NCBI GenBank assembly: GCA_964590985.1
Contig: CAZPZA010000001.1
Coordinates: 1-24,495, forward strand
Direction of reading: 5' to 3'
Source: an uncultured Gammaproteobacteria bacterium
GTDB lineage: Bacteria > Patescibacteriota > Microgenomatia > Levybacterales > UBA12049
Length of the DNA: 24,495 nt
The notes under the pieces were generated by a model. That model searched no databases. It was not told where the DNA came from and saw only the letters and a program-made list of their open reading frames with translations. This document shows, piece by piece, positions 1,135 through 24,495 of this stretch (within the stretch, counting starts at the first letter, position 1; each line of letters begins with the position of its first letter). Both the position numbers and the translations under genes were made by a program.

Positions 1135-1165
1135 CAAAGTATAGCGCTACATAGTAGTATACTTT
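1135..1165 (+). repeat. REP-like palindrome family B, intergenic copy
   Basis: CAAAGTATAGCGCTACATAGTAGTATACTTT with AAAGTATA/TATACTTT arms; 30/31 identical to the reverse complement of 24109-24139 inside pyrC. Confidence 0.9.
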
Positions 1166-1212
1166 GGAATAATTTTGAGGCTGAATGGCAAAAATGGTAT
1201 AATTGCGATCGT

Positions 1213-1797
1213 ATGCTACAAGAGGTCGAACAACACAGATTTGGACGGAGAGAGTATGCAGGTAGGACTATTGGAGGAAATGTTGCAGACAATCCGTTTT
1301 CCAGAGCGCTACATTGCATGGCAGCTAAAAGAGGTTTTGAGTCCCAAACTGCTTTAGGCAGGGCTCTTGGGAAAAAACACATTATAGTAGTAAGTAGGTG
1401 GCTAAGAGGTGAGAGTGTTCCTTCGCCTAAAGAATTTGGCAACATAATTAAAACGCTTAAGCCAACGGACAACGAATTAGATGTGTTGGTTGAGCCATAT
1501 GCCCAGCTGATTCTTGAAGGAAGAGGGATCAAAGGAGGATTGCCAGAGAAACGAGTCGGCAAGACAACGGGTGGTATAGTTACACGAATGCAAAACAATA
1601 CCGATCGTGTAACTTTTAATGGAGCACAGGCAGGTTCGATATTTGGAGTTAGCCGAGAAAGAATAAGACAGTTGCGTCGTAGATTGGAATTACCCTTATT
1701 AATGACAGAAGAAGATCTAGCTGCGATTGAAGCCAAACTTGAAAAGACAAAGATTTTTCGAAGACGACTTCGGCAAACCAGAATTAGAAATCGCTAG
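1213..1797 (+). CDS. Putative DNA-binding protein with an XRE-like HTH and a C-terminal sigma70-region-4-like HTH
   Basis: SQTALGRALG...VSRWLRGESVPS is XRE-like and AQAGSIFGVSRERIRQL is region-4-like. ATG 1213 is preferred over TTG 1126 because TGgTATAAT (1195-1203) lies just upstream and the extension translates a repeat. Confidence 0.6.
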   Translation: MLQEVEQHRFGRREYAGRTIGGNVADNPFSRALHCMAAKRGFESQTALGRALGKKHIIVVSRWLRGESVPSPKEFGNIIKTLKPTDNELDVLVEPYAQLILEGRGIKGGLPEKRVGKTTGGIVTRMQNNTDRVTFNGAQAGSIFGVSRERIRQLRRRLELPLLMTEEDLAAIEAKLEKTKIFRRRLRQTRIRNR

Positions 1798-1856
1798 CTA
1801 TAGCTGAAGTCCTATTTTTCCATTTCTAGTTTATACTATAGTATACTAACGACACA

Positions 1857-2528
1857 ATGATTCCTAAAGAACGCGAACATAAAGACTCTTCAGGCTTACC
1901 TTTAATTTCTAGAAAGATATCTAGTGAACGACTCAAAGAATTTTCTGGGAAACGTTGGCTAAGCGATGATCTAAGAGCTGTGTCCCAGGCTATAGTGAGG
2001 AACGGAAAAGAACTGCTTGCTGGAGATGAAACTAATTGGGATTTGGTTTTGGGTAGTATACGCAGTCAGCGACAGGACAGCGTGCAGTTTGGAGAGGCTG
2101 CGATAGCTGCAAGTGGCGCTAGTTTTATTGGAGCATTGGGAGCGCAGGCCCAATGGTCAATGCACGATCCACAAATGGTTTATCTTAGCGGGGTATTGCT
2201 TGGTTACAGGGTAAATGCAAAAGACAACGGGGAATTGGAAGGCTTCAAAAATCGAATGCAACAGGCTTGTGTTGATTATGGACAGAAAGTTCTTCCTAAG
2301 CCCAGTATTTATTATATGGAGATTTTAGACTTTTTGTTATTAGAAATTACAGACAGAAGAACACATAGGTCTACTATGGATAAGGTGGTGTCTTTATTGA
2401 AGGAGGGCAATATTAAAAAAGCCTATAATTTAATTAACTCCCTTGATGATCGAGTAAGAAAGCGTGGACAAGGTTCTTCCAAAACTACCACGTCTTCTAT
2501 TCTTACCCCACCAAATCCCGGCAAGTAA
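1857..2528 (+). CDS. Hypothetical protein
   Basis: 223-aa ORF, TATACT 9 nt before the ATG, no recognised motif; the last 106 bp overlap the convergent peptidase gene. Confidence 0.6.
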   Translation: MIPKEREHKDSSGLPLISRKISSERLKEFSGKRWLSDDLRAVSQAIVRNGKELLAGDETNWDLVLGSIRSQRQDSVQFGEAAIAASGASFIGALGAQAQWSMHDPQMVYLSGVLLGYRVNAKDNGELEGFKNRMQQACVDYGQKVLPKPSIYYMEILDFLLLEITDRRTHRSTMDKVVSLLKEGNIKKAYNLINSLDDRVRKRGQGSSKTTTSSILTPPNPGK

Positions 2529-3514
2529 ATTCCTGGTTCGATAGTAAAAACCATGCCTGGTTTTAGAATATCTTTTGAGTTTGGAGAAAGACGCGGTGCT
2601 TCATGGACTTCAAGACCAATTCCATGACCGACGCTATGAGGTATGGTTTTATAGTTTTTTGAGATAATATAATCGCGAGCAACTTTATCGACTTTTTTTG
2701 CAAGGATACTCCTTCGCAAAGGAGTATCCTTGTTAGCAAGTACGTTTATTGCTTTTTGTTGGGCATCAAGGACTGTTTGATACATCTTTTTGTACTCTGC
2801 ATTAGGAGAACCAAAAAAGACAGTTCGAGTCATGTCGGAGCAGTAGCTGTCGATCTTAACACCAAAATCAATCAATATTATGTCTTTGGTTTTTAGTCTT
2901 TGGTAGCTAGTCTTATGGTGGGGAAAAGCAGAGTTTTTGCCAAACGCAACAATAGGCGGAAAAGAAACATCTGCCCTATGTTTTTTGATAAACAATTCTA
3001 TTTCGCATGCTAATTCTTTTTCTGCTATACCCTCTTTTATCTTGCCTAAGATATAATTAAATGTTTTATCTCCTAGACTACAGGCTCTTTCTATAGTTTC
3101 TATTTCTTTTTTATCTTTTATTATTCGTAGGTGATCGGCAGTATAATGATATAAATCGTTGCAGTGTTTAGAAATCATTCTGTGTTCTTTAACTGTGAGG
3201 TTATCTTCTTCGATGCCAAGTTTTTTGATTTTGTGTTTTTTAGATATTCTTTTTAATGCCTTTTCAAATGAAAATTTTGTAGATATTTCGATGAGCTCAA
3301 AATCGCTGATTAGAGTTTTAACTGCTTGGCTATAGCGGCCATCAGTTAGAATGTATTGTTTGTCCTTTGCAATAAAAATATATGCTTCGCGTTCCTCTTT
3401 TGAAAATGAAGAAAAGTTGGTTAGATAAGTAATATTTGGGACAGAGGAGATAAGAGCAGCATTGAAGCGACTGTGGATCAGTTTATGTCTCACTTTTGAT
3501 AAACGGCCGTTCAT
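2423..3514 (-). CDS. Xaa-Pro aminopeptidase/dipeptidase (M24B family)
   Basis: Creatinase-like N-domain (TDGRY); metal ligands in DFG...YCSDMTRT, HSVGHGIGLEVHE, TIEPGIY and GVRIED. Confidence 0.95.
   Translation of the reverse strand: MNGRLSKVRHKLIHSRFNAALISSVPNITYLTNFSSFSKEEREAYIFIAKDKQYILTDGRYSQAVKTLISDFELIEISTKFSFEKALKRISKKHKIKKLGIEEDNLTVKEHRMISKHCNDLYHYTADHLRIIKDKKEIETIERACSLGDKTFNYILGKIKEGIAEKELACEIELFIKKHRADVSFPPIVAFGKNSAFPHHKTSYQRLKTKDIILIDFGVKIDSYCSDMTRTVFFGSPNAEYKKMYQTVLDAQQKAINVLANKDTPLRRSILAKKVDKVARDYIISKNYKTIPHSVGHGIGLEVHEAPRLSPNSKDILKPGMVFTIEPGIYLPGFGGVRIEDVVVLEEPCPRFLTRSSRELIKL
2701..2732. repeat. Perfect 14-bp-stem palindrome inside the peptidase CDS
   Basis: CAAGGATACTCCTT-CGCA-AAGGAGTATCCTTG; encodes NKDTPLRRSIL on the minus strand. 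Confidence 0.85.
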
Positions 3515-3556
3515 TTGTTTTAGATAAAGTTGTTAGATAAAGTGATTTAACAGATA

Positions 3557-3624
3557 AGATTTATGATTTAAGAATAAGAGGAGGGAAGATAATTCATAAA
3601 TCTTAAATTGTAAATCATAAATCT
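3557..3624. repeat. Inverted heptamer-type array (ATTTATG/ATTTAAG units), possibly a terminator
   Basis: AGATTTATGATTTA (3557-3570) is perfectly inverted at TAAATCATAAATCT (3611-3624), directly after the stop of 3623-4321. Confidence 0.75.
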
Positions 3625-4321
3625 ATCTAAGAGTAGTTAGGATTTCGGGTAAAAGAATAATTCTTGTTGCTGTAATTAGATTTTCTTCTTCTTTGTTTGC
3701 TTGTCCTGTCGCAATAACTCTTTCATTTCCTTTTATCTTGGAAAATCCAGAGCGGAGGAGCCCTTCGTCTTTAGAATAAGATGAAGTTTTGGTTGTTTTT
3801 TCTACGTCAAGAAACATCTCTTTGTTATCTTCCGTTTGAACTTTAACTCTAAATTTTGTAGCATCGAGAGAATCAATAACACCATAAACAATGACAGGAA
3901 GATCTATCGTACTTACAAAACGCGCAAGAATTCTTCTCGACTCTTTGTTGTAAAGCCCCAATGCACCAATAGTGTCGCCTTTTGTAATATCGGAAATTCC
4001 AAATTCCTTTTGAGCAGGATTTGAAAATTTTGTTAGCTCGTCCATATCTATAAATCTTGTATTGTTTTTTAAGTCAATAATTGTTATTTGAGTATCAGAA
4101 ACATCTGTTACTGTACCAATAATTCCCCGCTTTTCAACAAGATTAAGCTCTGCTACATGAGAAGCTATACGAGTTTTAAGATCAGTTATCTGCTGATTTA
4201 TAACTTCCTTACTATCCTTGCTTTCTGTGGTAGGCGTAGGAGTTGCGGCAATAGTAGGAATAGCGAAAATAGCAAATAGCAAATAGAAAATAGAAAATAG
4301 AAATAAGAGAATCTTTGCCAT
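3623..4321 (-). CDS. Secreted protein with probable tandem OB-fold (DUF5666-like) domains
   Basis: Hydrophobic signal peptide, Thr/Pro linker, and two repeats of the GxV-x-x-V...I-x-x-G-D-x-V/I-x-A-x-G type. Confidence 0.65.
   Translation of the reverse strand: MAKILLFLFSIFYLLFAIFAIPTIAATPTPTTESKDSKEVINQQITDLKTRIASHVAELNLVEKRGIIGTVTDVSDTQITIIDLKNNTRFIDMDELTKFSNPAQKEFGISDITKGDTIGALGLYNKESRRILARFVSTIDLPVIVYGVIDSLDATKFRVKVQTEDNKEMFLDVEKTTKTSSYSKDEGLLRSGFSKIKGNERVIATGQANKEEENLITATRIILLPEILTTLR
4266..4300. repeat. Heptamer tandem array (A/C)AAATAG x5 encoding part of the signal peptide
   Basis: AAAATAG CAAATAG CAAATAG AAAATAG AAAATAG, read as LFSIFYLLFAIF on the minus strand. Confidence 0.8.
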
Positions 4322-4340
4322 ATGTCAACCTCACCCCCAA

Positions 4341-4361
4341 CCCTCTCCTAAAAGGAGAGGG
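4341..4361. repeat. REP-like hairpin
   Basis: CCCTCTCCT-AAA-AGGAGAGGG preceded by CCTCACCCCCAA, between two co-directional genes. Confidence 0.7.
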
Positions 4362-4366
4362 AACTC

Positions 4367-4795
4367 TTAAAACTCCTCGGTTGAGAAGGTTACCGTTCTA
4401 GTCAATCTTTCGCTTTGTCCATTTGGGGCAATGGCTATTACGTCTATCATATTTTGATCATCTAAAATGCTGATAGTTGTTAGGAAGTCTCCATTTTGTG
4501 AGGGAGTTACAATGTCTTGATAGTCTTTGGAGATTATAGCAACGATGGCATCAGCAGTGGTTTTGCCAGATATTGTGATTATCTTTTTGGTAAATACCTC
4601 TTCGTCTTTTGGCGAATCAAGAGTTAAAAAAAATGTTTGCTTTGGAGTAGGTGAGAGAGCTATTTTAGAAACTACTTTATTTTGTTTTTGATCTGCTATT
4701 CTGTTTGCAGATTCGTAAAAATAGAATGCAATTGCCGCAACCAATAACCCAATAAAAACAGCAACAAAAGACAATATGATTTTCTCCTTTTTCAT
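4367..4795 (-). CDS. Membrane-anchored protein with a bacterial Ig-like domain
   Basis: N-terminal TM helix, then ITISGKT...NGDF...N-x-I-x-V-x-A beta-sandwich pattern; start moved to ATG 4795 (MKKEKII) because of the promoter position. Confidence 0.7.
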   Translation of the reverse strand: MKKEKIILSFVAVFIGLLVAAIAFYFYESANRIADQKQNKVVSKIALSPTPKQTFFLTLDSPKDEEVFTKKIITISGKTTADAIVAIISKDYQDIVTPSQNGDFLTTISILDDQNMIDVIAIAPNGQSERLTRTVTFSTEEF

Positions 4796-4808
4796 AAAAG
4801 CGAGAGAA

Positions 4809-4837
4809 ATCATACGATAAAAAAATATGCTTGTCAA
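4809..4837 (-). promoter_or_regulatory. sigma70 promoter
   Basis: Minus strand TTGACA (4837-4832), 17 nt, TATGAT (4814-4809); ATG 13 nt downstream. Confidence 0.75.
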
Positions 4838-4871
4838 GGAAAATTGGCTATGATATCATAGGTATAATAAG

Positions 4872-5393
4872 ATGTTGGATATTTATGTTCTTGGTAGTAA
4901 TTCAATAAAAATTCGTACAAAACGGGTATCTTTTGTTGTTGATCCCGTTGATTCAATTAGCAAAACAAATGCTGACGCTGTGCTTGTTTTGAGGAAAGAG
5001 ACTGTAGATTTAGCAAGAGTTTCAAACTATAGAGTTGTTTTGCGAGGCGAGGGAGAATACGAGATTGAAAATGTTAAGATTTCAGGCATTGCGGCAGGAG
5101 AGGGTTTTGTTTATAGTATTTTTGCAGATAATATGGAGATTGTTTTGGGCAGAGTAAGTACGCTTTTAAGAATACAAGATAAAAGCTTGTTATGCCAAGT
5201 TGCGCTTCTTAATGTAGACAACGAATTAAAATCTATTATTGCAAACTTAGAACCAAGAGCTGTTATTTTGTATGGAGAGAAAAGGATCGAAGGAGCCAAA
5301 GAATTAGGAAAAGATTGGGTAAAGCCAGTTTCGAAAGTTACTGTTACGAAAGAAAAGTTAGAGAAGGAGATAGAAGTAGAGGTGTTGGGATAA
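4872..5393 (+). CDS. Degenerate metallo-beta-lactamase-fold protein
   Basis: LGSNSIKI...VVDP...ADAVLV...GEGEYEIENVKISGI resembles MBL-fold proteins, but the HxHxDH motif is absent and the protein has no His. Confidence 0.6.
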   Translation: MLDIYVLGSNSIKIRTKRVSFVVDPVDSISKTNADAVLVLRKETVDLARVSNYRVVLRGEGEYEIENVKISGIAAGEGFVYSIFADNMEIVLGRVSTLLRIQDKSLLCQVALLNVDNELKSIIANLEPRAVILYGEKRIEGAKELGKDWVKPVSKVTVTKEKLEKEIEVEVLG

Positions 5394-5400
5394 AATAGTT

Positions 5401-5496
5401 AAAAGTTCAAAGTGCAAAGTTCAAAATTACAATTCAAAATTAAAAATTTTTAACTTTAAACTGTAACTTTTAATTTTTAACTTTGAACTTTAAATT
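5401..5496. repeat. Inverted heptamer array (AAAGTTC/AAAATTC units)
   Basis: Left AAAAGTT CAAAGTG CAAAGTT CAAAATT ACAATT CAAAATT AAAAATT; right TAACTTT AAACTG TAACTTT TAATTTT TAACTTT GAACTTT. Confidence 0.85.
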
Positions 5497-5501
5497 TATT
5501 T

Positions 5502-6824
5502 ATGGCAACCTTAAAGGTTCCTCCTCACAACGAAGAAGCCGAAAGCAGCGCATTGGGTGCGATACTTATAGACAAAGACGCTATAAGCGTTGTATCCTCA
5601 TTTATTTCTGTGAATGACTTTTACAATCAGGTTAATGGTTTAATCTATAGGGCAATGCTATCTTTATACGAGAAAGGCGAGCCAATAGATATGCTTACTC
5701 TTATATCTCGACTTAAGAAAGAAAAAACGTATAAAAAAGTTGATTCTTCTTATCTTGTTAACCTTGTTAACACTGTTCCAACTGCAGCAAATGTAGAACA
5801 TTATGCATTATTAATTAAAGAAGCTGCAACAAAAAGAGCATTAATTCAGGCTGGAACTCAAGTTGTGGAGATGGGATTCTCCGAAGATCAAGAGGCGGCA
5901 GACTGTCTTAACAAAGCAGAATCAGCGATATTTTCTATCTCTCAAAAAAACAACTTGCGGTCTTTTGTTTTACTAAAGGATGCACTCGCAGAAAGCTTTG
6001 ATAGAATAGACGAACTTCATAAGAAAGATTCGGGACTGCGAGGTGTTGCGACAGGTTTTGTGGATTTGGACAAAATTTTATCTGGCATGCAGAGATCCAA
6101 CCTTCTTATTTTGGCAGCGCGCCCGGGCCAGGGAAAAACAGCTATGGTGGTAAATATTTCTCGGTATATTACAGTTAACGACAAAAAACCAGTTGGTATA
6201 TTTTCTTTGGAAATGAGCAAAGAAGAATTGGTGGATAGACTGTTGGTTGGGCAAGCAGATGTTGATGCTTGGAGAATAAAAACTGGAAGGCTGTCGGATG
6301 CAGACTTTACTAAACTATCAAATGCTATGGGAGAATTGGCAGAGGCAAAAATTTTTATAGACGATACACCGGGAATCTCGGTATCTGAAATGCGTACAAA
6401 AGCAAGGCGTTTGCATCTTGAGCAAAATTTATCTTTACTAATAGTAGATTATCTCCAGCTTGTTGATCCCGGACGAAGGTACGATAACAGAGTGCAGGAA
6501 GTATCTATTGTTTCTCAATCGCTTAAAAATTTGGCGCGAGAACTTAAGATTCCGGTTTTGGCTGTATCCCAACTCTCAAGGGCAGTTGAGCACAGAGGCG
6601 AAAAAAGACCTCAACTTGCCGATCTTAGGGAGAGTGGTTCTATAGAACAAGATGCAGACGTAGTGATGTTTTTGTATAGGCCAGAGAGTGAGCCTGCGCC
6701 TATAATACTAACAAAACTTTTTGTAGCCAAACACAGAAATGGTCCAATGGGAGAAATAGATTTAGGCTTCCGTGGAGCAAGGTTGAGATTTGAAAATATA
6801 GAAGGAAGAAGAGAGTTCGCATGA
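5502..6824 (+). CDS. dnaB: Replicative DNA helicase
   Basis: PPHNEEAE N-terminus, Walker A ARPGQGKT, IVDYLQL, SQLSR, LRESGSIEQDAD, KHRNG; no intein. Confidence 0.98.
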   Translation: MATLKVPPHNEEAESSALGAILIDKDAISVVSSFISVNDFYNQVNGLIYRAMLSLYEKGEPIDMLTLISRLKKEKTYKKVDSSYLVNLVNTVPTAANVEHYALLIKEAATKRALIQAGTQVVEMGFSEDQEAADCLNKAESAIFSISQKNNLRSFVLLKDALAESFDRIDELHKKDSGLRGVATGFVDLDKILSGMQRSNLLILAARPGQGKTAMVVNISRYITVNDKKPVGIFSLEMSKEELVDRLLVGQADVDAWRIKTGRLSDADFTKLSNAMGELAEAKIFIDDTPGISVSEMRTKARRLHLEQNLSLLIVDYLQLVDPGRRYDNRVQEVSIVSQSLKNLARELKIPVLAVSQLSRAVEHRGEKRPQLADLRESGSIEQDADVVMFLYRPESEPAPIILTKLFVAKHRNGPMGEIDLGFRGARLRFENIEGRREFA

Positions 6825-6830
6825 GCATAT

Positions 6831-6915
6831 TAAATATAAAAAATATAATATCAAATATACATATAAAATATTAAAAATATTTAATATTTACTATTTACCA
6901 TTTAATATTTTATGT
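6831..6915. repeat. Inverted AT-rich heptamer array (AAATATC-type units)
   Basis: CAAATAT ACATAT AAAATAT TAAAAAT on the left, mirrored by ATTTAAT...TTTAATATTTTATGT on the right. Confidence 0.65.
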
Positions 6916-6937
6916 GGTTTGAGGGGGGTGATGAATA

Positions 6938-7129
6938 GTGGATGATCAGATGAATCAAGGAACGGGAGGTATGGTTGGATCGGTCCCCCCACAGCCTATG
7001 GGAGGGATGAATCCACAGCCTCCACCAATGGGAGGAATGGAAGGAGAAGACCCGCATGAAAAAATTATAGCTTCACTCTTAAGAATAGAGGAGAAGTTAG
7101 CAACAATTGCTGCCAAAGTTGGAGCGTAG
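6938..7129 (+). CDS. Small protein with a Met/Gly/Pro-rich N-half and a coiled-coil C-half
   Basis: 63 aa, GTG start preceded by the strong SD-like GAGGGGGGTGA (6921-6931). Confidence 0.6.
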   Translation: MDDQMNQGTGGMVGSVPPQPMGGMNPQPPPMGGMEGEDPHEKIIASLLRIEEKLATIAAKVGA

Positions 7130-7131
7130 AT

Positions 7132-7152
7132 TTGCAAGGTGAGACCTTGCAA
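7132..7152. repeat. REP-like hairpin
   Basis: TTGCAAGGT-GAG-ACCTTGCAA, 9-bp perfect stem; the CAAGG/CCTTG outer arms are shared with 2701-2732. Confidence 0.75.
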
Positions 7153-7164
7153 GAGGAACTTGCA

Positions 7165-7188
7165 ATATCTATAACGATCCCATATCGT
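7165..7188 (+). repeat. REP-like family A, diverged copy
   Basis: ATATCTATAACGATCCCATATCGT versus consensus GTATCTGTACCGATCCCRTATCGG, with a compensatory A-T closing pair. Confidence 0.65.
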
Positions 7189-7240
7189 TAGTATATCCAC
7201 GAAATGGAAAACTCTTTTCTCCAGGTAAAAATTTCCTTAC

Positions 7241-7285
7241 TGGTGCTGGGGAGGAAGTCGAACCCTCACAGCCTTGCGACTAGTA
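7241..7285 (-). pseudogene. 3' half of a tRNA-Leu (att-like remnant)
   Basis: 7250-7285 is 34/36 identical to 8657-8692 of the tRNA-Leu in the same orientation; it ends CCCAGCACCA. Confidence 0.85.
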
Positions 7286-7289
7286 ATCC

Positions 7290-7559
7290 CTATTTTGTCT
7301 CAAGCAGAAATGGCTCTTGTTTTTTAATTCTATTGTTATTTTTTAAGAATCCTGCAATATTTAATTCTTTTGGAAATATGCCAATTACCTCAAGGCTGAT
7401 TGCTCTACCTTGCCTATCTTTGATGATTACATCATTACTATAGGGAGAATCTACTTGATGAGAAGAATATGCTTTTTTAGGATCACCCCACCAGATATTA
7501 AGTGTGTTTGCTACAGGATCAAGATAAAGTTTTACTGTTCTTTTTGTTGCTTTAGCCAT
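7290..7559 (-). CDS. DUF2283-family protein (putative antitoxin)
   Basis: LYLDPVANTLNI and KDRQGRAISLEVI match the DUF2283 pattern; overlaps the upstream gene by 28 bp. Confidence 0.7.
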   Translation of the reverse strand: MAKATKRTVKLYLDPVANTLNIWWGDPKKAYSSHQVDSPYSNDVIIKDRQGRAISLEVIGIFPKELNIAGFLKNNNRIKKQEPFLLETK

Positions 7560-7882
7560 AGAAGCTCTCCCTTCTTTATATATTCTTTCGTTTGATAAAC
7601 AGTGACCAAAAAGCCTTCTCCGTTTAAGACTTTGACTGCAACGATAAGTATATCATATTTTGCAACCTTTTTGGCAAAGAGAATAACAGTTGGGTCTGTT
7701 ACACTTCTTCTTGCCTCTTCTGGATTTTTTAATGTTTTCTTGATTTCCTTAGTACCATAGCGCAACTCTCTGTGTTTTAATGTCTTAATTTTTAGCCAGT
7801 AATCCTTGGTTGTGCGGATCTTTCTACCAAAAATATCTTCAATCTCAAATAGAATTTCGTGCTTGATAATTTTTGTTGCCAC
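7532..7882 (-). CDS. Putative BECR/RelE-like ribonuclease toxin (DUF4258-like)
   Basis: 116-aa basic protein with W...KH, TLKNP and the C-terminal GFLVTVY strand; typical partner of DUF2283. Confidence 0.6.
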   Translation of the reverse strand: MATKIIKHEILFEIEDIFGRKIRTTKDYWLKIKTLKHRELRYGTKEIKKTLKNPEEARRSVTDPTVILFAKKVAKYDILIVAVKVLNGEGFLVTVYQTKEYIKKGELLWLKQQKEQ

Positions 7883-7888
7883 GAAGTT

Positions 7889-7917
7889 ATTGTAATGGCA
7901 TATCCTGTATTTTACAA
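7889..7917 (-). promoter_or_regulatory. Leaderless-type promoter of the toxin/DUF2283 pair
   Basis: TTGTAA (7917-7912), 17 nt, TACAAT (7894-7889), GTG 6 nt later. Confidence 0.65.
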
Positions 7918-7979
7918 GGCATTAGCTATTTAACTGTGGGCTGCGGTCGCAGGGGATAGTTAAATGCTGTTCTCAAAAT

Positions 7980-8036
7980 TACCGTTTCGTCGTATCTGTA
8001 CCGATCCCGTATCGGAAGTATGTCTACGAAGCGGTA
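7980..8036 (+). repeat. REP-like family A, full composite copy
   Basis: Core TCGTCGTATCTGTACCGATCCCGTATCGG (7987-8015) inside the outer stem TACCGTTTCGT/ACGAAGCGGTA. Confidence 0.9.
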
Positions 8037-8647: not shown

Positions 8648-8649
8648 AG

Positions 8650-8732
8650 TGGGCAAGGAGGGAGTCGAACCCTCACAGCCTTGCGACCAGTAGTTTTTGA
8701 GACTACCGCGTATACCATTCCGCCACTTGCCC
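8650..8732 (-). tRNA. tRNA-Leu(CAA), CCA not encoded
   Basis: GGGCAAG/CTTGCCC acceptor stem, GGAATGGTA D-loop, GTAGT-CTCAAAA-ACTAC anticodon arm, long variable arm, GAGGG-TTCGACT-CCCTC T-arm. Confidence 0.97.
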
Positions 8733-11899: not shown

Positions 11900-11958
11900 T
11901 CGTCGTATCTGTACCGATCCCGTATCGGAGGTAATGGTTCGTATCGGAGGTAATGGTT
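11900..11958 (+). repeat. REP-like family A copy plus an adjacent 19-bp tandem duplication
   Basis: Core 11900-11928; CGTATCGGAGGTAATGGTT occurs at 11921-11939 and 11940-11958. Confidence 0.9.
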
Positions 11959-16310: not shown

Positions 16311-16311
16311 A

Positions 16312-16900: not shown

Positions 16901-17410
16901 ATGGAACCTTCTTCTCTTCCATCAGGAGACTTTGTCGCTGGTCTAACAGATGGCGAAGGATGTTTTGCATTAAAGTTTCGTCGTGACTTTAAAAAGAACC
17001 GGCCCAATTCTCCTGTCTACTTCGGTTGGCAGTCCGCTTTTATTATTACCCTTCGAAAAGACGACTTTCCTTTATTGCAGAAAGTTAGACAAGTGGTCGG
17101 ATGTGGAACAATCACTATCTCAGGGAATTCTGTTAGTTTTCAGGTTCAAGATACGGATGAGCTTCTCAATATCATTGTTCCATTTTTTACTCGTTATAAG
17201 CTTCATGGAAAGAAATCGGAAGATTTCAAGTTATGGGTAGAGGCAGTGAAATTAATAGCTTCTAACAAAAAGCGAAATGTAAATGTTCAAAGAGGAGTAC
17301 GGGGCTTTATCAAAGTTAATTGGAAAAAAGAAGATCTTTTACGTTTAAACGAAATCCGTAAGGATATGAGGGTATATAAAGCTGCTCATTCTCCTTTTAA
17401 ATGGGATTAA
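16901..17410 (+). CDS. Single-motif LAGLIDADG homing endonuclease, free-standing
   Basis: DFVAGLTDGEGCF, IIVPFFTRYKLHGKKSEDFKLW; 169 aa, homodimeric class. Confidence 0.92.
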   Translation: MEPSSLPSGDFVAGLTDGEGCFALKFRRDFKKNRPNSPVYFGWQSAFIITLRKDDFPLLQKVRQVVGCGTITISGNSVSFQVQDTDELLNIIVPFFTRYKLHGKKSEDFKLWVEAVKLIASNKKRNVNVQRGVRGFIKVNWKKEDLLRLNEIRKDMRVYKAAHSPFKWD

Positions 17411-18151: not shown

Positions 18152-18166
18152 CCCTTTTATTGTTAG

Positions 18167-18209
18167 TTGACAAACATTTTTTTATGTCGCATAATTATTG
18201 TGCGACATA
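18167..18209 (+). promoter_or_regulatory. Promoter with an overlapping palindromic operator
   Basis: TTGACA (18167-18172)-17-CATAAT (18190-18195); TATGTCGCA...TGCGACATA arms (18183-18209). Confidence 0.7.
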
Positions 18210-18328
18210 TGGATAGAGAACTGCTTTCTTTAATTAAGCAATTTCTAGAATACCTAGAGATTGACCCCACACATGCTTACTTCTCGGCTTTTCAATTCTA
18301 TTCGAATACGCCTCGAAGAGCGCAATGA
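18209..18328 (+). pseudogene. Truncated 5' end of a Xer-type recombinase followed by a palindromic element
   Basis: MDRELLSLIKQFLEYLEI is homologous to MSSYLDDLIIQFLEHLEV of the downstream gene; it then runs into a CCCC...CGCAATGACGGGG palindrome and stops. Confidence 0.7.
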
Positions 18329-18353
18329 CGGGGCAAGGAAAAAATTGTTTAAT

Positions 18354-19286
18354 ATGAGTAGCTATCTTGATGATCTAATCATTCAATTTCTCGAACACTT
18401 AGAAGTGGAGAAAAACTGTTCGAAATTAACTATTCGTGACTATCGACATTATCTAGACATATTTGCAAAATGGTTCTGCTCTACCCTACCCAACAGACAG
18501 ATTTCCGATCTCAACTTACAAACTGTTAGAAAATATAGAGTTTATTTGGCAAACAGAGTTGATAAGAAAGGGCTTACTCTAAAAAGAGTTACACAAAACT
18601 ATTACATAATAGCTCTCCGAAGTTTTTTAAGATTTTTAATAAAAAATGATCACAAAACTCTTGAGCCCTCCAAAATAGATTTACCCAAAGCAGAAAGCAG
18701 GTCTTTAAAGTTTTTAGATAGAGACCAAATTGATCGGTTGGTAAATATGGTTGATACTTCAAAAGAAGAAGGATTAAGAGATAGAGCAATTTTGGAGCTT
18801 TTGTTTTCTACCGGACTTCGAGTTTCGGAACTTGTAAGGCTTAATCATAATCAAGTAAATTTAGAAAGAAAAGAATTTGGAGTAATTGGAAAAGGCGGAC
18901 GAGCCCGTGTTGTTTTTATTTCTGATAGAGCTGCTGCATGGATAATGAGATATCTTGAAAAACGGAAAGATCGTTTTGCGCCCCTTTTTATTCGGTACTC
19001 GGGGAGAGTGGATGAGCAAAATAATGGCGAAAAGATGCGCTTGACTTCCCGAAGTGTTGAGAGAATTGTTAAAAAATATGTTCGCTTAGCAAGGCTCCCT
19101 GTCGATGCTACGGTGCACACGCTAAGACACAGCTTTGCAACAGATTTGCTGACAAACGGCGCTGATTTAAGATCGGTTCAAGAAATGTTGGGGCATAAAA
19201 ACATCTCAACTACCCAGATCTATACTCATATAACAAATAGGCAGTTGCGAGAAGTACATCAGACTTTTCATTCGGGGAACAAATAA
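18354..19286 (+). CDS. XerC/XerD-family tyrosine recombinase
   Basis: SAM-like N-domain; catalytic residues in GLRVSEL, GKGG, HTLRH, LGH and TQIYT; ATG 18354 is preferred. Confidence 0.95.
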   Translation: MSSYLDDLIIQFLEHLEVEKNCSKLTIRDYRHYLDIFAKWFCSTLPNRQISDLNLQTVRKYRVYLANRVDKKGLTLKRVTQNYYIIALRSFLRFLIKNDHKTLEPSKIDLPKAESRSLKFLDRDQIDRLVNMVDTSKEEGLRDRAILELLFSTGLRVSELVRLNHNQVNLERKEFGVIGKGGRARVVFISDRAAAWIMRYLEKRKDRFAPLFIRYSGRVDEQNNGEKMRLTSRSVERIVKKYVRLARLPVDATVHTLRHSFATDLLTNGADLRSVQEMLGHKNISTTQIYTHITNRQLREVHQTFHSGNK

Positions 19287-19291
19287 ATTTA

Positions 19292-19346
19292 TCCACATCG
19301 TCGTATCTGTACCGATCCCATATCGGTTTTCTATTGGCGATGCGGA
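19292..19346 (+). repeat. REP-like family A composite copy
   Basis: Core 19298-19326 (CCCAT loop variant) within outer stem TCCACATCGTC/GGCGATGCGGA; starts 5 nt after the xer stop. Confidence 0.9.
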
Positions 19347-19458
19347 AAAAGAATTTTGCTGAGACTGCTTTTGCCCGACCACAAGTTGGAAAGCAACAAC
19401 TTAAATAACGTCCTCCCCCCTCAAACTCCTAGGATCAGTCTAGGTAATATTTTCTATC

Positions 19459-19511
19459 TCAAATGCATTTCTTAAACCATCACAATTTGATGAATTGAAA
19501 AATTTGTGATA
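19459..19511 (+). repeat. Left arm of the inverted repeat flanking the PaaX/Cas2-like gene
   Basis: AATTGAAAAATTTGTGATA (19493-19511) is the exact reverse complement of 20162-20180; similarity extends imperfectly to ~53 bp. Confidence 0.85.
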
Positions 19512-19541
19512 ATTATAAGCATTTAGTTTTTAACTGGGTTT

Positions 19542-20120
19542 TTAAATTCCAAAATATTCCCTGTAGGCTTTTTCATTTTCGAGTCCGCTTACCGTAAGTA
19601 TTAATGCTTCTGTATTAATGGAGCAAACTTGGCGTAAATATTCAATTTCGTCATAACACTTAAATGGCGTTAAATATACGCTTCTTTGGAGCTTTAGGAA
19701 TTTAAGTCTTTTTAAGGTTTTTCGAAAAAGACTTGCCTCTTCCTTTTTGCCGGTAAGAATATCATAAATTATAATTCGCCATTTTCCATCCCATTTTTGG
19801 TCTTTAAGTTCCATTTCATCAAGATTAAACTTAAGCAATCTTTTTTTACCATTTTCAGAGATTTTTACTATATGTTCTTCGTTGTTCTCTACTATCTCAA
19901 CCAATTTTTGTTGATGCATTCTTTTTAATACTTGCTTTAATCTCCAAGTATTAAATTTTTTCCACTCGTTTTCTTCTCTTTTTTTCTTTTCGTCCAAGAA
20001 TGGCTTTAAAACCATTGGGAGATTAGGCATAACAATACTTGCAGCAAGGAATGTTCCTGCACCAAGGAGCATTAACACTTCTTTTACTTTTGGATCAATT
20101 TTCTTAGAAGGTGGTCGCAT
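19542..20120 (-). CDS. PaaX-like protein: winged helix plus Cas2/VapD-like ferredoxin-fold domain
   Basis: LKQVLKRMHQQKLVEI...ISENG (wHTH); KWDGKWRIIIYDI...FRKTLKRLKFLKLQRSVY (PaaX central, Cas2-like domain). Confidence 0.8.
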   Translation of the reverse strand: MRPPSKKIDPKVKEVLMLLGAGTFLAASIVMPNLPMVLKPFLDEKKKREENEWKKFNTWRLKQVLKRMHQQKLVEIVENNEEHIVKISENGKKRLLKFNLDEMELKDQKWDGKWRIIIYDILTGKKEEASLFRKTLKRLKFLKLQRSVYLTPFKCYDEIEYLRQVCSINTEALILTVSGLENEKAYREYFGI

Positions 20121-20161
20121 AAATAAATTGCTAAAGTTAAAGTTTAGCTATAATCCTAAAG

Positions 20162-20213
20162 TATCACAAATTTTTCAATTGCGCAATCTGTGATGGATTT
20201 GAAGTGGATTTGA
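20162..20213 (-). repeat. Right arm of the inverted repeat flanking the PaaX/Cas2-like gene
   Basis: TATCACAAATTTTTCAATT GCGCAATCTGTGATGGATTTGAAGTGGATTTGA. Confidence 0.85.
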
Positions 20214-20261
20214 ACGATTTAAACAAAAAAGTTTTGTAACAAATAGCATATAATAGCGTCT

Positions 20262-21110
20262 ATGGGAAAACAGTTGGTTTTTGGTAGGAAAACGTTGGTC
20301 ATGGGAGTACTCAATGTAACTCCCGACTCTTTTTCCGATGGCGGTTTGTATATTGATCCTAAAAAAGCAGTTGGCCGGGCGAAAGAGATGGTTTTGGAGG
20401 GTGCGGATATTATAGATGTTGGCGGCGAATCAACAAGACCTGGGTCAGAGCCCGTATCGGTTGATGAAGAAATAAAAAGAGTAGTGCCAGTTATAAAAGA
20501 AATAAAAAATACTTTGCCCGCGTCAGACGCGGTTTTGATATCTATAGATTCCTATAAATCAGAAGTTGTTAGACAAGCACTTTTGGAAGGAGCTAACATA
20601 GTAAATAGTTTGGGAGGATTTTTGTTTGACGAGAAACTAGCAGATGTTGCGAAAGAGTTTAATGTGCCAGTAATTATTTACCACATAAAAGGAAAACCCA
20701 AGATTATGCAACAAGAACCAGTTTATAAAGACGTTATAAAAGATATAATGGGATTTTTTAGAGAGCAGATTAAAATCGGAGTTTCTAAAGGCTTGAAAAG
20801 AGAACAGTTTCTTGTAGATCCAGGAATTGGTTTTGGAAAAACGATTAAGCAGAATTTGGAGATTGTTAAAAGACTGTCAGAGATCAAGTCGTTAGAGCTA
20901 CCTATCGTGATTGGTGTTTCAAGAAAAAGTCATTTGGGAAAGCTTTTGCAGGAAGAGCTAAAATTGGATACTCTCCCCTCCCCAACCGAAAGACTAGAAG
21001 CATCGCTTGCCGAAACAGCAGTTGTTGTTCTTAACGGCGCAAATATAATAAGGACTCATGATGTTTTACAAACAAAAAAGTTTTTGGCTCTTTTGGATAG
21101 GTTAAAATAA
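20262..21110 (+). CDS. folP: Dihydropteroate synthase
   Basis: MGVLNVTPDSFSDGG, DVGGESTRPG, DPGIGFGK, GVSRKS, RTHDV. Confidence 0.97.
   Translation: MGKQLVFGRKTLVMGVLNVTPDSFSDGGLYIDPKKAVGRAKEMVLEGADIIDVGGESTRPGSEPVSVDEEIKRVVPVIKEIKNTLPASDAVLISIDSYKSEVVRQALLEGANIVNSLGGFLFDEKLADVAKEFNVPVIIYHIKGKPKIMQQEPVYKDVIKDIMGFFREQIKIGVSKGLKREQFLVDPGIGFGKTIKQNLEIVKRLSEIKSLELPIVIGVSRKSHLGKLLQEELKLDTLPSPTERLEASLAETAVVVLNGANIIRTHDVLQTKKFLALLDRLK
20518..20532. repeat. Short GC palindrome inside folP
   Basis: CCGCGTC-A-GACGCGG; encodes PASDA in a surface loop before ISIDSY. Confidence 0.5.
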
Positions 21111-21119
21111 AATACAATA

Positions 21120-21614
21120 ATGACATCACACAAAATTTTCTTAGGTCTTGGAGCAAACGTGGGAGATAAAAAGGCAAATTTGCTAAAAGCTATTGAGCTT
21201 TTGAAAGAAAAAGTATCAGATATTGTTGTTGCGCCAGTATACGAGACAAAACCCTGGGGTTATAAAGAGCAAGATAATTTTTTGAATACTGCTGTTAGGG
21301 GGAGCACTTCCCTATCGCCTATCCATCTTTTAAGATTTGTCAAAGATATTGAGAAAAAAGTTGGTAGAATAAAAAGATTTAAATGGGGACCAAGAGAAAT
21401 TGATATTGATATTTTATTTTATGACAATCTTATTTGCAAAGATCATAATCTTGAAATTCCCCACCCTCGTCTTCATAAGCGAGATTTTGTCTTAAAGCCC
21501 CTAATGGATTTGGACAAAGATTTAATTCATCCAGTTTTCAAAAAGACAGTGATTGAGGTTTATAAAGTACTACCAAAAACAGATTGTTTTATAGTTAGGA
21601 CTATCAAAGCATAA
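21120..21614 (+). CDS. folK: 2-amino-4-hydroxy-6-hydroxymethyldihydropteridine pyrophosphokinase
   Basis: LGLGANVGD, YETKPWG, FLNTAV, WGPREIDIDIL, IPHPRLHKRDFVLKPL. Confidence 0.97.
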   Translation: MTSHKIFLGLGANVGDKKANLLKAIELLKEKVSDIVVAPVYETKPWGYKEQDNFLNTAVRGSTSLSPIHLLRFVKDIEKKVGRIKRFKWGPREIDIDILFYDNLICKDHNLEIPHPRLHKRDFVLKPLMDLDKDLIHPVFKKTVIEVYKVLPKTDCFIVRTIKA

Positions 21615-21621
21615 TACCGGA

Positions 21622-21650
21622 TCGTCGTATCTGTACCGATCCCGTATCGG
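21622..21650 (+). repeat. REP-like family A copy between convergent genes
   Basis: TCGTCGTATCTGTACCGATCCCGTATCGG, identical to 7987-8015 and 11900-11928. Confidence 0.9.
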
Positions 21651-21659
21651 AATAGCATA

Positions 21660-23156
21660 CTAATGCTGATTACTCAAATTATCAATGACCATTGCTGCTA
21701 CTTCAACATCGGTAATTAAATTTATTCCCATATTCACAGAAATTTTTCTAATCAACTTTCCATCAGTAAACTCCTTGCCCTCTTTAATCTTATCTCTGGT
21801 TGGAATGTTGACGACAAGGTCAAAAACCTTTCTTTGTAAAAGATCGGCAATATTTGGGTTTTTGCCTCCTTCAGAGATTTTGTAGACAAGAGATGTAGGT
21901 ATTCCATGTTCTTTCAAAAATCTATGTGTTTTTTCGGTAGTATATAGAATGACATTTGAGTCTCTTGCCAAGTTTTTGATATGAGGCAGTAAAAATTTTT
22001 TATTTTTAATTTTCCCAATTGTCAATAAAACATGTGTTTTTTTCTGACTTAAGATTGCAGCTTGTCCATACCTTGATTTGCTCCAGTCTTCTGTTTGAGT
22101 ATTGAGAAGTGAAAAAATAGAAACATTTCTAATATCTTTTTCAGCAAAAATGTATTGCAGTACCCTTTCATTTCCAATGCCATAACCAGCGTGCGGATTA
22201 GTAGAATTTTGCTCTATAATATCTAGATACCATTTAAAATCTTCGTATTTACCTCCTCGCATTATATGTAGTTGATACATGGTGGAGGTGATTAATCGGC
22301 TATTGAGTTTTTTGAAATCATGCTCGCGAACCGATGCTCCTGTTCCCTCTCCGGCATAAGGAAAAATTAAATCTGCAGATAACACCACTCTCTCATCTTT
22401 AGTATAAACCTTCATGTTGAAAAACTTAATTTCTTTGGGATATTTCATGATAAACACCGGCAACTCCCCATTTTTTTTATTAAGGAGTTCAACAATTTTT
22501 GCCTCGTGTTTAGTTTTTAAATCATCACCAAATTTAACTTCTGGATAACCGTTGCTATTTAAAAGTTTTATTGCTGATTCATACTCGATTCTTAAAAAAT
22601 TTTTTATTGTTGTTTCAGTTAGTCTATCTACATTTCTTTTGTAAACCTTTCTTAAAATCTCCTCACGATCTATTAGCACTTTTTTAATCATGGACTGCAC
22701 TGTTTTTTGAATACTATTAAGCAAAGCTCCATACATTTGATCTTCGTCATAGTTTTCCCTTGTAAGACCAGTAAGTGTGCAGTCAAACTCTTCTTCTGTA
22801 AGCCTGAATTGTCTAAGATGTCTTTCATCTTCTTTGTCCTCATCGCGGCCCGAATGAATAATAGTGTATACAGCTGGCAATGACTGGAGTGCTTGTTCGA
22901 GAGCAAGTTGGCCTGTTTGGGTAAAAAATAGCGGTAGATCAAGACGATTGCCTACCTTAAAAAGAGTATCAACATTCTCACAAGCGCCTGTAATGCCTAC
23001 TATTTGGGGTACATCGACATATACTCTTCCTCTTTCTTGATAGCTTTCGTGGGCGCCTTGGTTTAGACTTTGGTTAACATTTATTAAATTTAGGAAATGA
23101 TCATCAAAATCTAAAGCGAGCCTTTTTCCTTCGGCACAAAGAGAAATTTTTTTCAT
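21660..23156 (-). CDS. AsnRS/AspRS-like class IIb catalytic core (no anticodon domain) fused to a CarB-type MGS domain
   Basis: FFTQTGQLALE, motif-2-like SGRDE...RHLRQF, FIMKYPKEIKFFNMK, SADLI..GE..GAS.RE, motif 3 PHAGYGIGNERV; C-terminal VLLTIG...TTEKTHRFLKEHGI...DLVVNIPT...DGKLIRK...ITDVEVA. Confidence 0.85.
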   Translation of the reverse strand: MKKISLCAEGKRLALDFDDHFLNLINVNQSLNQGAHESYQERGRVYVDVPQIVGITGACENVDTLFKVGNRLDLPLFFTQTGQLALEQALQSLPAVYTIIHSGRDEDKEDERHLRQFRLTEEEFDCTLTGLTRENYDEDQMYGALLNSIQKTVQSMIKKVLIDREEILRKVYKRNVDRLTETTIKNFLRIEYESAIKLLNSNGYPEVKFGDDLKTKHEAKIVELLNKKNGELPVFIMKYPKEIKFFNMKVYTKDERVVLSADLIFPYAGEGTGASVREHDFKKLNSRLITSTMYQLHIMRGGKYEDFKWYLDIIEQNSTNPHAGYGIGNERVLQYIFAEKDIRNVSIFSLLNTQTEDWSKSRYGQAAILSQKKTHVLLTIGKIKNKKFLLPHIKNLARDSNVILYTTEKTHRFLKEHGIPTSLVYKISEGGKNPNIADLLQRKVFDLVVNIPTRDKIKEGKEFTDGKLIRKISVNMGINLITDVEVAAMVIDNLSNQH

Positions 23157-23170
23157 GTCGCTGGGATTTT

Positions 23171-23199
23171 AGTTTATAGATCTTATTATTTTTTGTCAA
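23171..23199 (-). promoter_or_regulatory. Promoter of the AsnRS-like-MGS gene
   Basis: TTGACA (23199-23194)-17-TAAACT (23176-23171); ATG 14 nt downstream. Confidence 0.7.
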
Positions 23200-23285
23200 T
23201 AGTCAATTCTTGTTCGAAGAGTTACATGGGAGGTGGACTAGATAGGACACCGCCTTAGAGATTTTGTACAAGGGGATGAACTATG

Positions 23286-23321
23286 CCGATATGGGATCGG
23301 AATAGCTATGCCGAAGCGGTA
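23286..23321 (-). repeat. REP-like family A diverged copy overlapping the pyrC stop codon
   Basis: Minus strand TACCGCTTCGGCATAGCTATTCCGATCCCATATCGG aligns without gaps to 7980-8015. Confidence 0.75.
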
Positions 23322-24495
23322 ATAATTTTCCCAAATCCTTCTTTTGCGAGGATTTTTCCGTTTTCAAAGACTTTTTTTCCACGAATAAAAACTCTCACAA
23401 CTTTTCCTTTTACCTTCATTCCCTCAAATGGTGACCAACCACACTTCGTAAATAAGGATGAATTATGAATGATGAATGATGAATTAAGATCTACTTCGGT
23501 ATAGGTTTCCTTATCAACTTTAATTCCAAAAATTTTTGCAGGGTTTGTGTGGCAGAGACGAATGATATCACTAAGTGTTAATCTTTTCTCAGAAACTGCG
23601 GTTAGTAAAAGTGGAAGGGTTGTTTCAAAACCAGGAACTCCAAAAGGTGGAAGAATCTGCGGGTCCTGGCGGGCTTTACCCCCGTCCGACATCCTCAGTC
23701 GCTTTGCTCCCTGCGGTTGCTCGACGGGGTCCCCCGCGCCCGCCACCCGCATAGTTTTTCCCACTTTTTCCGCAATTGTATGGGGGGCGTGGTCGGATTC
23801 GACAACGTTAATATATTTTAAATTTTCCCACAAAAACTCTACATCTTTTTTACTTTGCAAAGGTGGTCTCATTTTTCCAAAAGGACCAAGGATTTTTGCA
23901 TCTTTTTCATTCAAAAATAAATGATGAGGAGTTACGCCACAGGTTATTGGAAGGCCTTGTTCTTTGGCATGTATGATCATTTTAAGTTCAAAAGCTTGAC
24001 TTATATGACAAAAATGAGTCGGTGTTTTTATTTTTTTAACTACATTTATTACATCTTCAATTTTCTTCCCTTCTGCATGTACAAGTATCGGTTTTACGTT
24101 TTTCGTCGAAAGTATACTACTATGTAGTGCTATACTTTGGAACGCGTTTAACCAAGCGGTAAATATACTCTCTAAGATGTTTTTCTGAACAATAAAGTTT
24201 CCAGTAGTTTGATTAAGATATAATTTAAGTCCCATTACTTTATCTTTTACTTTTCTGAATTCATCGAGATTGTCACCCATTGATCCAAAGTAAAATCCTA
24301 CGTCGCAGACAATTTTTTTCTTGGCAATTTTTATTTTTTCATTTAATAATTTTGAAGTTGTAACAGGGACTTTGTTGTTCGGCATGTCAAAGATTGTGGT
24401 AAAACCTCCGGCAAGCGCGGCGCAAGTTCCGGTATAAAAATCTTCTTTGTGAGTCTGCCCCGGATCGCGTAAATGAACATGAGGATCAATAAGGC
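23306..24495 (-). CDS. pyrC: Dihydroorotase (runs off the right edge)
   Basis: The frame is open beyond the ORF-track start: LIDPHVHLRDPG...AALAGGFTTIFDMPN; also VHAE, CHIS, CGVTPHHL, SDHAPH, FGVPGFET, CGWSPF. Confidence 0.93.
   Translation of the reverse strand, partial: LIDPHVHLRDPGQTHKEDFYTGTCAALAGGFTTIFDMPNNKVPVTTSKLLNEKIKIAKKKIVCDVGFYFGSMGDNLDEFRKVKDKVMGLKLYLNQTTGNFIVQKNILESIFTAWLNAFQSIALHSSILSTKNVKPILVHAEGKKIEDVINVVKKIKTPTHFCHISQAFELKMIIHAKEQGLPITCGVTPHHLFLNEKDAKILGPFGKMRPPLQSKKDVEFLWENLKYINVVESDHAPHTIAEKVGKTMRVAGAGDPVEQPQGAKRLRMSDGGKARQDPQILPPFGVPGFETTLPLLLTAVSEKRLTLSDIIRLCHTNPAKIFGIKVDKETYTEVDLNSSFIIHNSSLFTKCGWSPFEGMKVKGKVVRVFIRGKKVFENGKILAKEGFGKIITASA
23456..23483. repeat. Heptamer array (GGATGAA TTATGAA TGATGAA TGATGAA) inside pyrC
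   Basis: Encodes (NS)SFIIHNSS just before LFTKCGWSPF. Confidence 0.7.
23658..23751. repeat. 94-bp GC-rich palindromic element, in-frame in pyrC
   Basis: Nested arms TGCGGG/CCCGCA, TGGCGGGC/GCCCGCCA, CCCCGTC/GACGGGG; 68/94 G+C by hand count. Confidence 0.85.
24109..24139 (-). repeat. REP-like family B copy, in-frame in pyrC
   Basis: 30/31 identical to 1135-1165; encodes QSIALHSSIL. Confidence 0.9.

Follow-up and report, generated by a model that had tools for sequence, protein, structure and literature searches.

Translated intragenic operators are represented by lac O2 in lacZ, gal OI in galE, and the PurR operator in purB, which acts as a roadblock. Rickettsia palindromic elements (RPEs) are about 100–150 bp long and numerous, and their landing places differ between genomes. 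Repetitive extragenic palindromes (REPs) are present in tens to hundreds of copies, are usually intergenic and often clustered, and have a cognate REP-associated tyrosine transposase (RAYT). Operators of the TrpR family are 20-bp palindromes with a lineage-specific consensus, autoregulation is common among them, and the TrpR motif TGTAcTnGTnnACnAgTACA contains GTACT half-sites (PMC9413887). The present analysis concerns a 30-bp palindromic element that occurs twice in a stretch of 24,495 nucleotides (contig CAZPZA010000001.1, positions 1 to 24,495; hereafter, the window), once upstream of a gene for a helix-turn-helix (HTH) protein and once within pyrC, the structural gene for dihydroorotase, where it is translated in frame. 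In our judgment this element is probably the operator of a TrpR-like regulator, which would include translated intragenic operators in pyrC and murT.

In comparison with the operators of TrpR from E. coli and of HisR/YerC from Firmicutes (PMC9413887), the element is likewise palindromic with a lineage-specific consensus, is located before the regulator gene, would serve a small metabolic regulon, and has a GTACT-type half-site in common with TGTAcTnGTnnACnAgTACA. It is unlike them in that it extends over 30 bp instead of 20 bp, that its half-sites are 4 bp closer, and that sites are found at both ends of the regulator gene and inside coding regions. Also, its predicted targets are pyr, pur, and murT genes and pentose-phosphate neighbors, not trp or his genes, and the regulator has an extra C-terminal domain. 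As in the translated intragenic operators, a predicted repressor site lies within a coding region, some hundreds of bases from its start, and is translated as ordinary codons, but here pyrC gained a dedicated loop, and the murT site is kept across many species with its synonymous positions frozen. In common with RPEs, palindromic DNA is translated in a housekeeping enzyme, its presence varies, and the insert is tolerated in an apparent surface loop; in contrast to RPEs, the element is only 30 bp long, low in copy number, conserved in position, and tied to a regulator gene. REPs and bacterial interspersed mosaic elements (BIMEs) resemble the element as short, imperfectly palindromic sequences that occupy narrow intergenic spacers, often where genes end, but the element has 2 copies in 24.5 kb and hardly any in 960 kb of related sequence, and no RAYT was seen among the window open reading frames (ORFs) scanned.

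The two copies and the features around them are the following.

1136..1165, plus strand: intergenic copy of the palindrome, AAAGTATAGCG-CTACATAG-TAGTATACTTT (covariance-model match 1132-1169, 50.8 bits)
1175..1203, plus strand: promoter-like site TTGAGG-17-TG-TATAAT (consensus match only, 10/12 plus TG extension)
1213..1797, plus strand: gene for the HTH protein, with a weak Sigma70_r4-like C-terminus (start set by homologue alignment)
23306..24495, minus strand: pyrC (dihydroorotase), its first 9 codons beyond the window end (Amidohydro_1/DHOase match; thousands of dihydroorotase relatives)
24095..24151, minus strand: whole extra PyrC segment LNAFQSIALHSSILSTKNV, standing in place of a 3-residue loop in insert-less orthologues
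24109..24138, minus strand: copy of the palindrome within pyrC, read (Q)SIALHSSIL (covariance-model match 24105-24142, 56.7 bits)

The palindrome and its two copies in the window

A reading made earlier from the sequence alone (the sequence-only reading) had reported a 31-bp pair, one member intergenic and the other within pyrC. The pair was confirmed by rereading of the sequence, by pattern search, and by shuffling: positions 1135-1165 read CAAAGTATAGCGCTACATAGTAGTATACTTT, the reverse complement of 24109-24139 reads CAAAGTATAGCACTACATAGTAGTATACTTT, the identity is 30/31, and the sole mismatch is GCG/GCA, which is synonymous. When up to 3 mismatches were allowed, just these two sites were detected in the window and 0 in 100 shuffles, and the arm pattern AAAGTATA-N14-TATACTTT is confined to the same two sites. 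A repeat finder returned the two copies as inverted repeat I3 (34 nt, 94% complementary), and an unfiltered covariance-model search detected no third copy in the window.

With the sequence AAAGTATAgyr-CTACATAG-TAGTATACTTT, the element forms a nearly perfect palindrome of 30 bp. Its register, as derived from variants, consists of symmetric arms of 13-14 bp and a CA center, because the variants L001a TATCACTACATAGTGATA and L023 pair in no other register. A register with a 3-nt bulge (outer stem, GYR bulge, CTAC/GTAG stem) was rejected for the same reason, and the idea of a bulge-helix-loop splicing motif fell together with it. Among 22 copies, 88.5% of the arm cells were paired (13-bp arms) and 5 pairs were changed on both sides, a level of covariation that was reached by 0/500 shuffles. 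Each arm looks like two adjacent half-sites of the GTAyA/GTACTA type around the invariant CTACATAG core, and paired half-sites in each arm could therefore provide room for a dimer of dimers.

The copy at 1136-1165 is also located within an open frame that starts at TTG 1126 and encodes the same peptide, a detail to be added to the description of an intergenic twin in the sequence-only reading. Many of the 95 homologues of the HTH protein begin at its residue 30, which corresponds to ATG 1213, and in the alignments residue 30-33 of the query matches residue 1-4 of the homologue. ATG 1213 and not TTG 1126 is therefore the true start, and the intergenic position of the copy is thereby confirmed. 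The copy has the same orientation as the HTH gene downstream of it, and the promoter-like site begins 10 bp past the palindrome and finishes 10 bp short of ATG 1213.

As the two window copies are inverted, lie 22.9 kb apart, and have a tyrosine recombinase gene between them, they might be crossover sites for a site-specific recombinase, such as the XerC/D-like protein encoded at 18261-19286, which would invert the 23-kb segment. Both copies are in the same reading phase and exchange would therefore leave the frames open. This explanation is barely credible: each copy is merely co-oriented with its own gene, inversion would split pyrC, copies elsewhere are single or form direct pairs 550-610 bp apart, and no inverted arrangement was seen in the four other contigs with this pyrC.

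Distribution of the palindrome and a TrpR-like gene flanked by it

An exact scan with AGTATANNNCTACATAGTAGTATACT (23 specified bases) over one genome per species, 596 Gb in total, returned 14 loci, for which we estimate a chance expectation of about 0.02. The hosts are Levyibacteriota, other Patescibacteria metagenome-assembled genomes (MAGs), and MAGs titled "Gammaproteobacteria" that contain Levybacteria-like genes. Copies were found in frame in murT of five genomes and in a gene for a membrane protein (TSQSIVLHSSILSTD), and in one gene the copy supplies the final codons and the stop (KYSTT*). Other copies are located upstream of purE, between purM and a peptidase gene, beside lepA, and before HTH/sigma genes. 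A covariance model was built from 22 copies and run over 95 sources totaling 960 kb, the E-values being rough. Beyond the known copies, its only matches were further copies at the pyrC site, the upstream copy that had been missing from L013, and a copy at the pyrC stop of locus L031. Within the Levybacteria pyrC loci (about 830 kb), matches were obtained at the pyrC site and at one pyrC stop codon only, and in 77 kb around the TrpR-like genes described below the flanking copies were the only matches.

A relaxed search returned pairs of copies 548-608 bp apart in three loci, with a gene for a protein of about 180 residues between them. This protein belongs to the Trp_repressor family (PF01371, E 5e-14; TIGR02531 below its cut-off), is closest to YerC/YecD and to the TrpR-like structures 3frw, 3kor, and 3g1c in the PDB, and has an extra C-terminal domain of about 80 residues. 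Four further TrpR-like genes were retrieved through the protein and not through the element, and this sample is therefore unbiased with respect to the element; in these four loci of 10-20 kb each, the only model matches were again the immediate upstream and downstream copies. The TrpR-like gene is thus flanked in 8/8 genomes, by one copy 4-12 nt before its start and by another at or just past its stop, the downstream copy overlapping the stop codon of the regulator and preceding the next gene. Its surroundings are fixed, in the order rpsB-tsf-frr-M50-zwf-[TrpR-like]-gnd-proS, and the gene is therefore not mobile; a mobile cassette made up of the gene and its flanking copies was rejected on this conserved synteny.

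Across these genomes the arms are lineage-specific and the core CTACATAG is kept, and copies in one genome share their arm variant. In L101, AAAGTATCATG...CAaTGTACTTT is present twice, and in L095, AAACTCyAG...CTAGAGTTT is present three times. The mean identity of copies is 0.82 within genomes versus 0.69-0.72 between genomes (permutation p about 0.0007), and between genomes it is no higher at orthologous positions (0.69) than at non-orthologous ones. Sites that are homogenized within a genome and conserved in position are what co-evolution with one trans-acting protein predicts. An attempt to relate the arm variants to the recognition helix was uninformative, as the helix is almost invariant in the eight proteins.

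From these data, the most likely binder of the site is a putative regulator of the Trp-repressor/YerC family, about 180 residues long and conserved in Levybacteria (Patescibacteria, also called candidate phyla radiation, CPR). We infer that the TrpR-like protein binds to the site, represses upon binding, and responds to an effector or ligand. It would act through a handful of sites per genome, and the one immediately upstream of its own gene suggests autoregulation. The remaining sites would be those before or inside genes of nucleotide and cell-wall metabolism, namely purE, next to purM, pyrC, and murT, and before the sigma-like HTH gene. In the window, one predicted site lies just upstream of the presumed promoter of the HTH gene at 1213-1797, and the other about 380 nt into pyrC, where a bound protein might constitute an intragenic operator or a roadblock for the pyr operon. 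Within the coding regions of pyrC and murT, bound protein could block elongation. The site is accommodated in coding regions in two ways: pyrC has an extra loop whose codons are the predicted operator (QSIALHSSIL), and in murT the site coincides with native codons. Overall, an operator bound by a protein accounts for these findings better than a selfish element does.

Several other assignments were considered for the site. The LexA box of Patescibacteria was dropped, as a literature search gave no match and no link to LexA was seen. The element was not adopted as a promoter, in which TATACT would act as a -10 box for leaderless transcription of the TrpR-like gene, for which the distance of 4-12 nt to the ATG is suggestive. 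This idea is weakened by the loss of the hexamer in variant lineages (TGTACT, AAGTAT) and by the separate promoter-like site downstream of the window copy.

The palindrome might also function at the RNA level, as a hairpin with a 13-bp stem and a conserved CUACAUAG apex that would serve as a signal for processing, stability, attenuation, or translation control between cistrons and inside pyrC and murT. The stem pairing is maintained by compensatory changes, the upstream copies abut the Shine-Dalgarno region and start of the TrpR-like gene, and in L097 an intercistronic spacer of 39 nt is taken up by the copy. Nearly all copies share the direction of the gene in or beside which they lie, and this orientation tracks transcription and not replication; the window copies are +/+ and -/- with their genes and are both located on one replichore according to GC skew. 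An RNA stem would tolerate G·U but not A·C, whereas the two are equivalent in duplex DNA recognized by a symmetric protein. Over 31 copies oriented by transcription, the symmetric mismatches on the sense strand comprised 20 G·T versus 21 A·C, and this absence of a wobble bias favors duplex DNA over an RNA hairpin. Furthermore, the stems share their sequence within a genome, which structure alone does not need, and it is not obvious what would be gained by a stable hairpin within the coding regions of two essential genes. No family match for the element was obtained with Rfam 15, in which only tRNA-Leu attains the gathering score in the window, and no U-tract terminator is present. An RNA-level signal is therefore considered unlikely.

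Translated copies in pyrC and murT

The closest relatives of the window PyrC are from Candidatus Levybacteria/Patescibacteria (58-69% identity), and two carbamoyltransferase genes are located upstream of pyrC, outside the window. On the minus strand, QSIALHSSIL is in frame within the segment LNAFQSIALHSSILSTKNV and directly before KPILVHAE. This reading frame agrees with the sequence-only reading, which had placed the peptide in an extra segment where a typical PyrC should have a short loop. In 120 close PyrC orthologues, IFTAW and KPILVHAE are separated by 1 to about 38 residues: the stretch is 8 residues or longer in 81 of them, most with recognizably related peptides (QSIALHSSILS, SMSLHSSIL, SLHSNRLY, TPSLDSAGVL, SILPSIRLF), and 39 have fewer than 8, the shortest being a single residue. 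Among 80 metagenomic pyrC loci, the distant orthologues almost all read AW-(3 aa)-KPILVHAE, with a loop such as PKN, KSS, or PGx. The expected short loop and the empty sites for which orthologues were to be aligned were thus both found, and by this comparison the PyrC segment qualifies as a genuine insertion. On a crude neighbor-joining tree, the presence or absence of the loop changes at least 24 times, and there must therefore have been many losses after an old gain, or repeated gains.

In an AlphaFold2 model, the element-encoded residues 130-139 have a predicted local distance difference test (pLDDT) score below 50 and are situated between a helix (113-128) and the strand of the HAE motif (145-148). 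The structural check suggested by the sequence-only reading thus returned a low-confidence loop between helix and strand, which is consistent with a surface loop and is not strong evidence for one.

The pyrC copy in the window is the same as that of L021 over 33 nt, although the two proteins are only about 72% identical. Identical residues of the two PyrC proteins use identical codons in 11/11 cases within the element versus 43% elsewhere in the gene, and other pairs behave alike, which shows constraint at the nucleotide level; recent spread of the element could also give the 33-nt identity. Copies in pyrC with differing arms stay palindromic, for example in L023 (AAAGTATGCCACTACATAGTGACATACTTT), L034 (AAAGTTTACTACTACATAGTAGTGAACTTT), and L016 (AAAACTCCA...TGGAGTTTT). 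In L031 the internal loop is short or empty and a palindrome at 6359-6388 is placed at the pyrC stop codon, giving the last residues and the stop (KYSTT*), which mirrors the copy at the ends of TrpR-like genes. As pyrC may have the site in its loop or, as L031 does, at its stop, the site is tied to the operon and not to one insertion event.

The same pyrC contains a second in-frame insert, at 23645-23776 on the minus strand, with about 34 residues (TMRVAGAGDPVEQPQGAKRLRMSDGGKARQDPQ) flanked by DHAPHT and FGVPG. Its G+C content is 60-67%, compared to 36% in the genome, and it folds into a strong hairpin (-61.7 kcal/mol). Long inserts at this site are present in only 23/120 PyrC orthologues. Relatives of the inserts of other orthologues occur in frame in carB (L046 7503-7604) and, in either orientation, in further ORFs (L040 5841-5939 and 6377-6461, type GTCATTGCGAGC...GCTCGCAATGAC). 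For the insert of the window itself no second copy was found apart from 36 matching nucleotides in L041, at the same site of pyrC. Judged by these sequences, this GC-rich family looks more like RPEs or miniature inverted-repeat transposable elements (MITEs) than the 30-bp palindrome does.

In murT the situation is different from that in pyrC, which gains 10-30 residues; murT gains none. The 120 MurT orthologues and MurT from S. aureus are of essentially the same length across the site, about 60% of the orthologues read ..S(I/L/M)(V/L)LHSSIL.., and the segment aligns with the native S. aureus sequence GITSAFIMQSTPK. The DNA of the murT site is palindromic with compensations, as in L105 (AAGTATGTTGCTACATAGCAGCATACTT). 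As there is no change in length, insertion cannot explain the murT site and selection for the site can; the palindrome is superimposed on native codons. The core variant CTACGTAG, which changes H to R, is present both in MurT (L102-L104) and in PyrC (L040), although PyrC and MurT variants could not be placed in one same genome. The sequence-only reading had advised a search for peptides like QSIALHSSIL in unrelated proteins, and S-I-x-L-H-S-S-I-L is present in MurT, in the membrane protein, and at the C-terminus of the TrpR-like protein.

The sequence-only reading had explained the pair as a mobile REP-like family that donates peptide to a core enzyme, with RPEs as the parallel. In such a case a small palindromic element of the REP, RPE, or MITE type would copy itself to new places, and the pyrC loop would be one in-frame landing. 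Part of this proposal holds: there is a family with intergenic and translated copies, the pyrC segment is a true insertion with empty orthologous sites and a patchy distribution, near-identical 30-mers are present in several unrelated contexts and genomes, the identity with L021 could reflect spread, and other dispersed elements insert in frame in these genomes, even in the same pyrC. Mobility itself does not agree with the data. Instead of a high number of dispersed intergenic copies there are two in the window and almost no extra ones in 960 kb; instead of being scattered over non-orthologous positions in related genomes, copies recur at the ends of the TrpR-like gene, in murT, and in pyrC. 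Moreover, murT carries the site without insertion, and the TrpR-like gene between the flanking copies keeps its synteny. Target-site duplications were not seen, and no transposase or RAYT was detected among the window ORFs scanned against Pfam, a scan that left several window ORFs, the related loci, and the rest of the genome outside. A mobile origin is accordingly regarded as quite unlikely, and the RPE parallel extends to the pyrC insertion but not to copy number, conserved position, or murT.

Some observations weigh against an operator of the TrpR-like protein. The link between regulator and site is suggested by adjacency and co-variation, and the window has no TrpR-like gene, nor was one seen for the window's own genome. 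The site is longer than the 20-bp operators of TrpR and HisR and its GTACT half-sites are more closely spaced, and the uniformity of the first 14 loci is partly due to their retrieval with an exact pattern. Almost all copies are co-oriented with transcription, which a symmetric operator does not require; constraints on coding and common ancestry account for much of this, and L010 is possibly an exception. Finally, the origin and patchy distribution of the pyrC insertion are left unexplained. The RNA-level and mobile-origin explanations are retained because an operator leaves the origin of the pyrC insertion and the co-orientation unexplained. For the same origin, patchiness, and strict co-orientation, a further possibility was kept, namely a portable regulatory module in which a miniature element carrying a TrpR-like binding site is copied into genes, including in frame into enzyme loops, or a variant of it with a directional action on RNA that involves the TrpR-like protein or some other factor. 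Module and variant taken together are doubtful. If the module existed, regulon membership would spread by insertion of a translated operator.

Other window features and the predicted regulon

The window has about 36% G+C and carries ordinary chromosomal genes, namely dnaB, an M24 peptidase, an MFS transporter, rluA-type, yebC, xerC/D-type, folP, and folK. The repeat CGTCGTATCTGTACCGATCCCGTATCGG, with a small hairpin CCGAT-CCCGT-ATCGG, is present in five or six copies in 24 kb, in every case at or just past the 3' end of a gene, including the pyrC stop, and represents a REP-like or terminator-like family:

7988-8015, 11901-11928, 19299-19326, 21623-21650, plus strand: repeat CGTCGTATCTGTACCGATCCCGTATCGG; also 23286-23313 (minus strand) and a variant near 7166-7211

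A 36-nt stretch at 7250-7285 is 94% identical to 8657-8692, the 3' part of tRNA-Leu(CAA) (gene 8649-8732), 1.4 kb away. Between the tRNA gene and its partial copy are small ORFs, one of them weakly similar to PBECR3 nucleases (7532-7882), and the arrangement resembles that of small elements integrated at tRNA genes. Inverted repeats at 19474-19514 and 20159-20199 (41 nt, 83% complementary) bracket a gene with a PaaX_M/Cas2-like domain (19542-20120, minus strand). A very AT-rich palindrome of 126 nt (5384-5509; 63-nt arms, 78% complementary) directly precedes dnaB, whose start (5502) falls within it. At 16901-17410 there is a free-standing ORF for a LAGLIDADG endonuclease (E 1.5e-20), with no rRNA or intron RNA around it according to Rfam. 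Downstream of pyrC, at 21660-23156 on the minus strand, a gene combines an AsnRS/AsnA-like class II catalytic core with an MGS-like domain such as CarB has at its C-terminus. This architecture is unusual and the gene is not conserved beside pyrC in other loci, for which reason a link between the pyrC site and this gene was rejected.

Patescibacteria of the CPR are uncultured and their gene regulation is almost unknown; the TrpR-like protein and the palindrome constitute a candidate regulator-operator pair for a whole class, Levybacteria, with a predicted regulon that includes genes of pyrimidine, purine, and cell-wall metabolism. A signal at the DNA level would constrain the protein in PyrC and MurT, as ten codons are frozen at synonymous positions and double as a predicted binding site, and the extra PyrC loop seems to exist only to hold that site. 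For annotation, this calls for caution, since an odd peptide that is conserved in unrelated proteins, such as SIxLHSSIL, can be the footprint of a DNA site instead of a protein motif.

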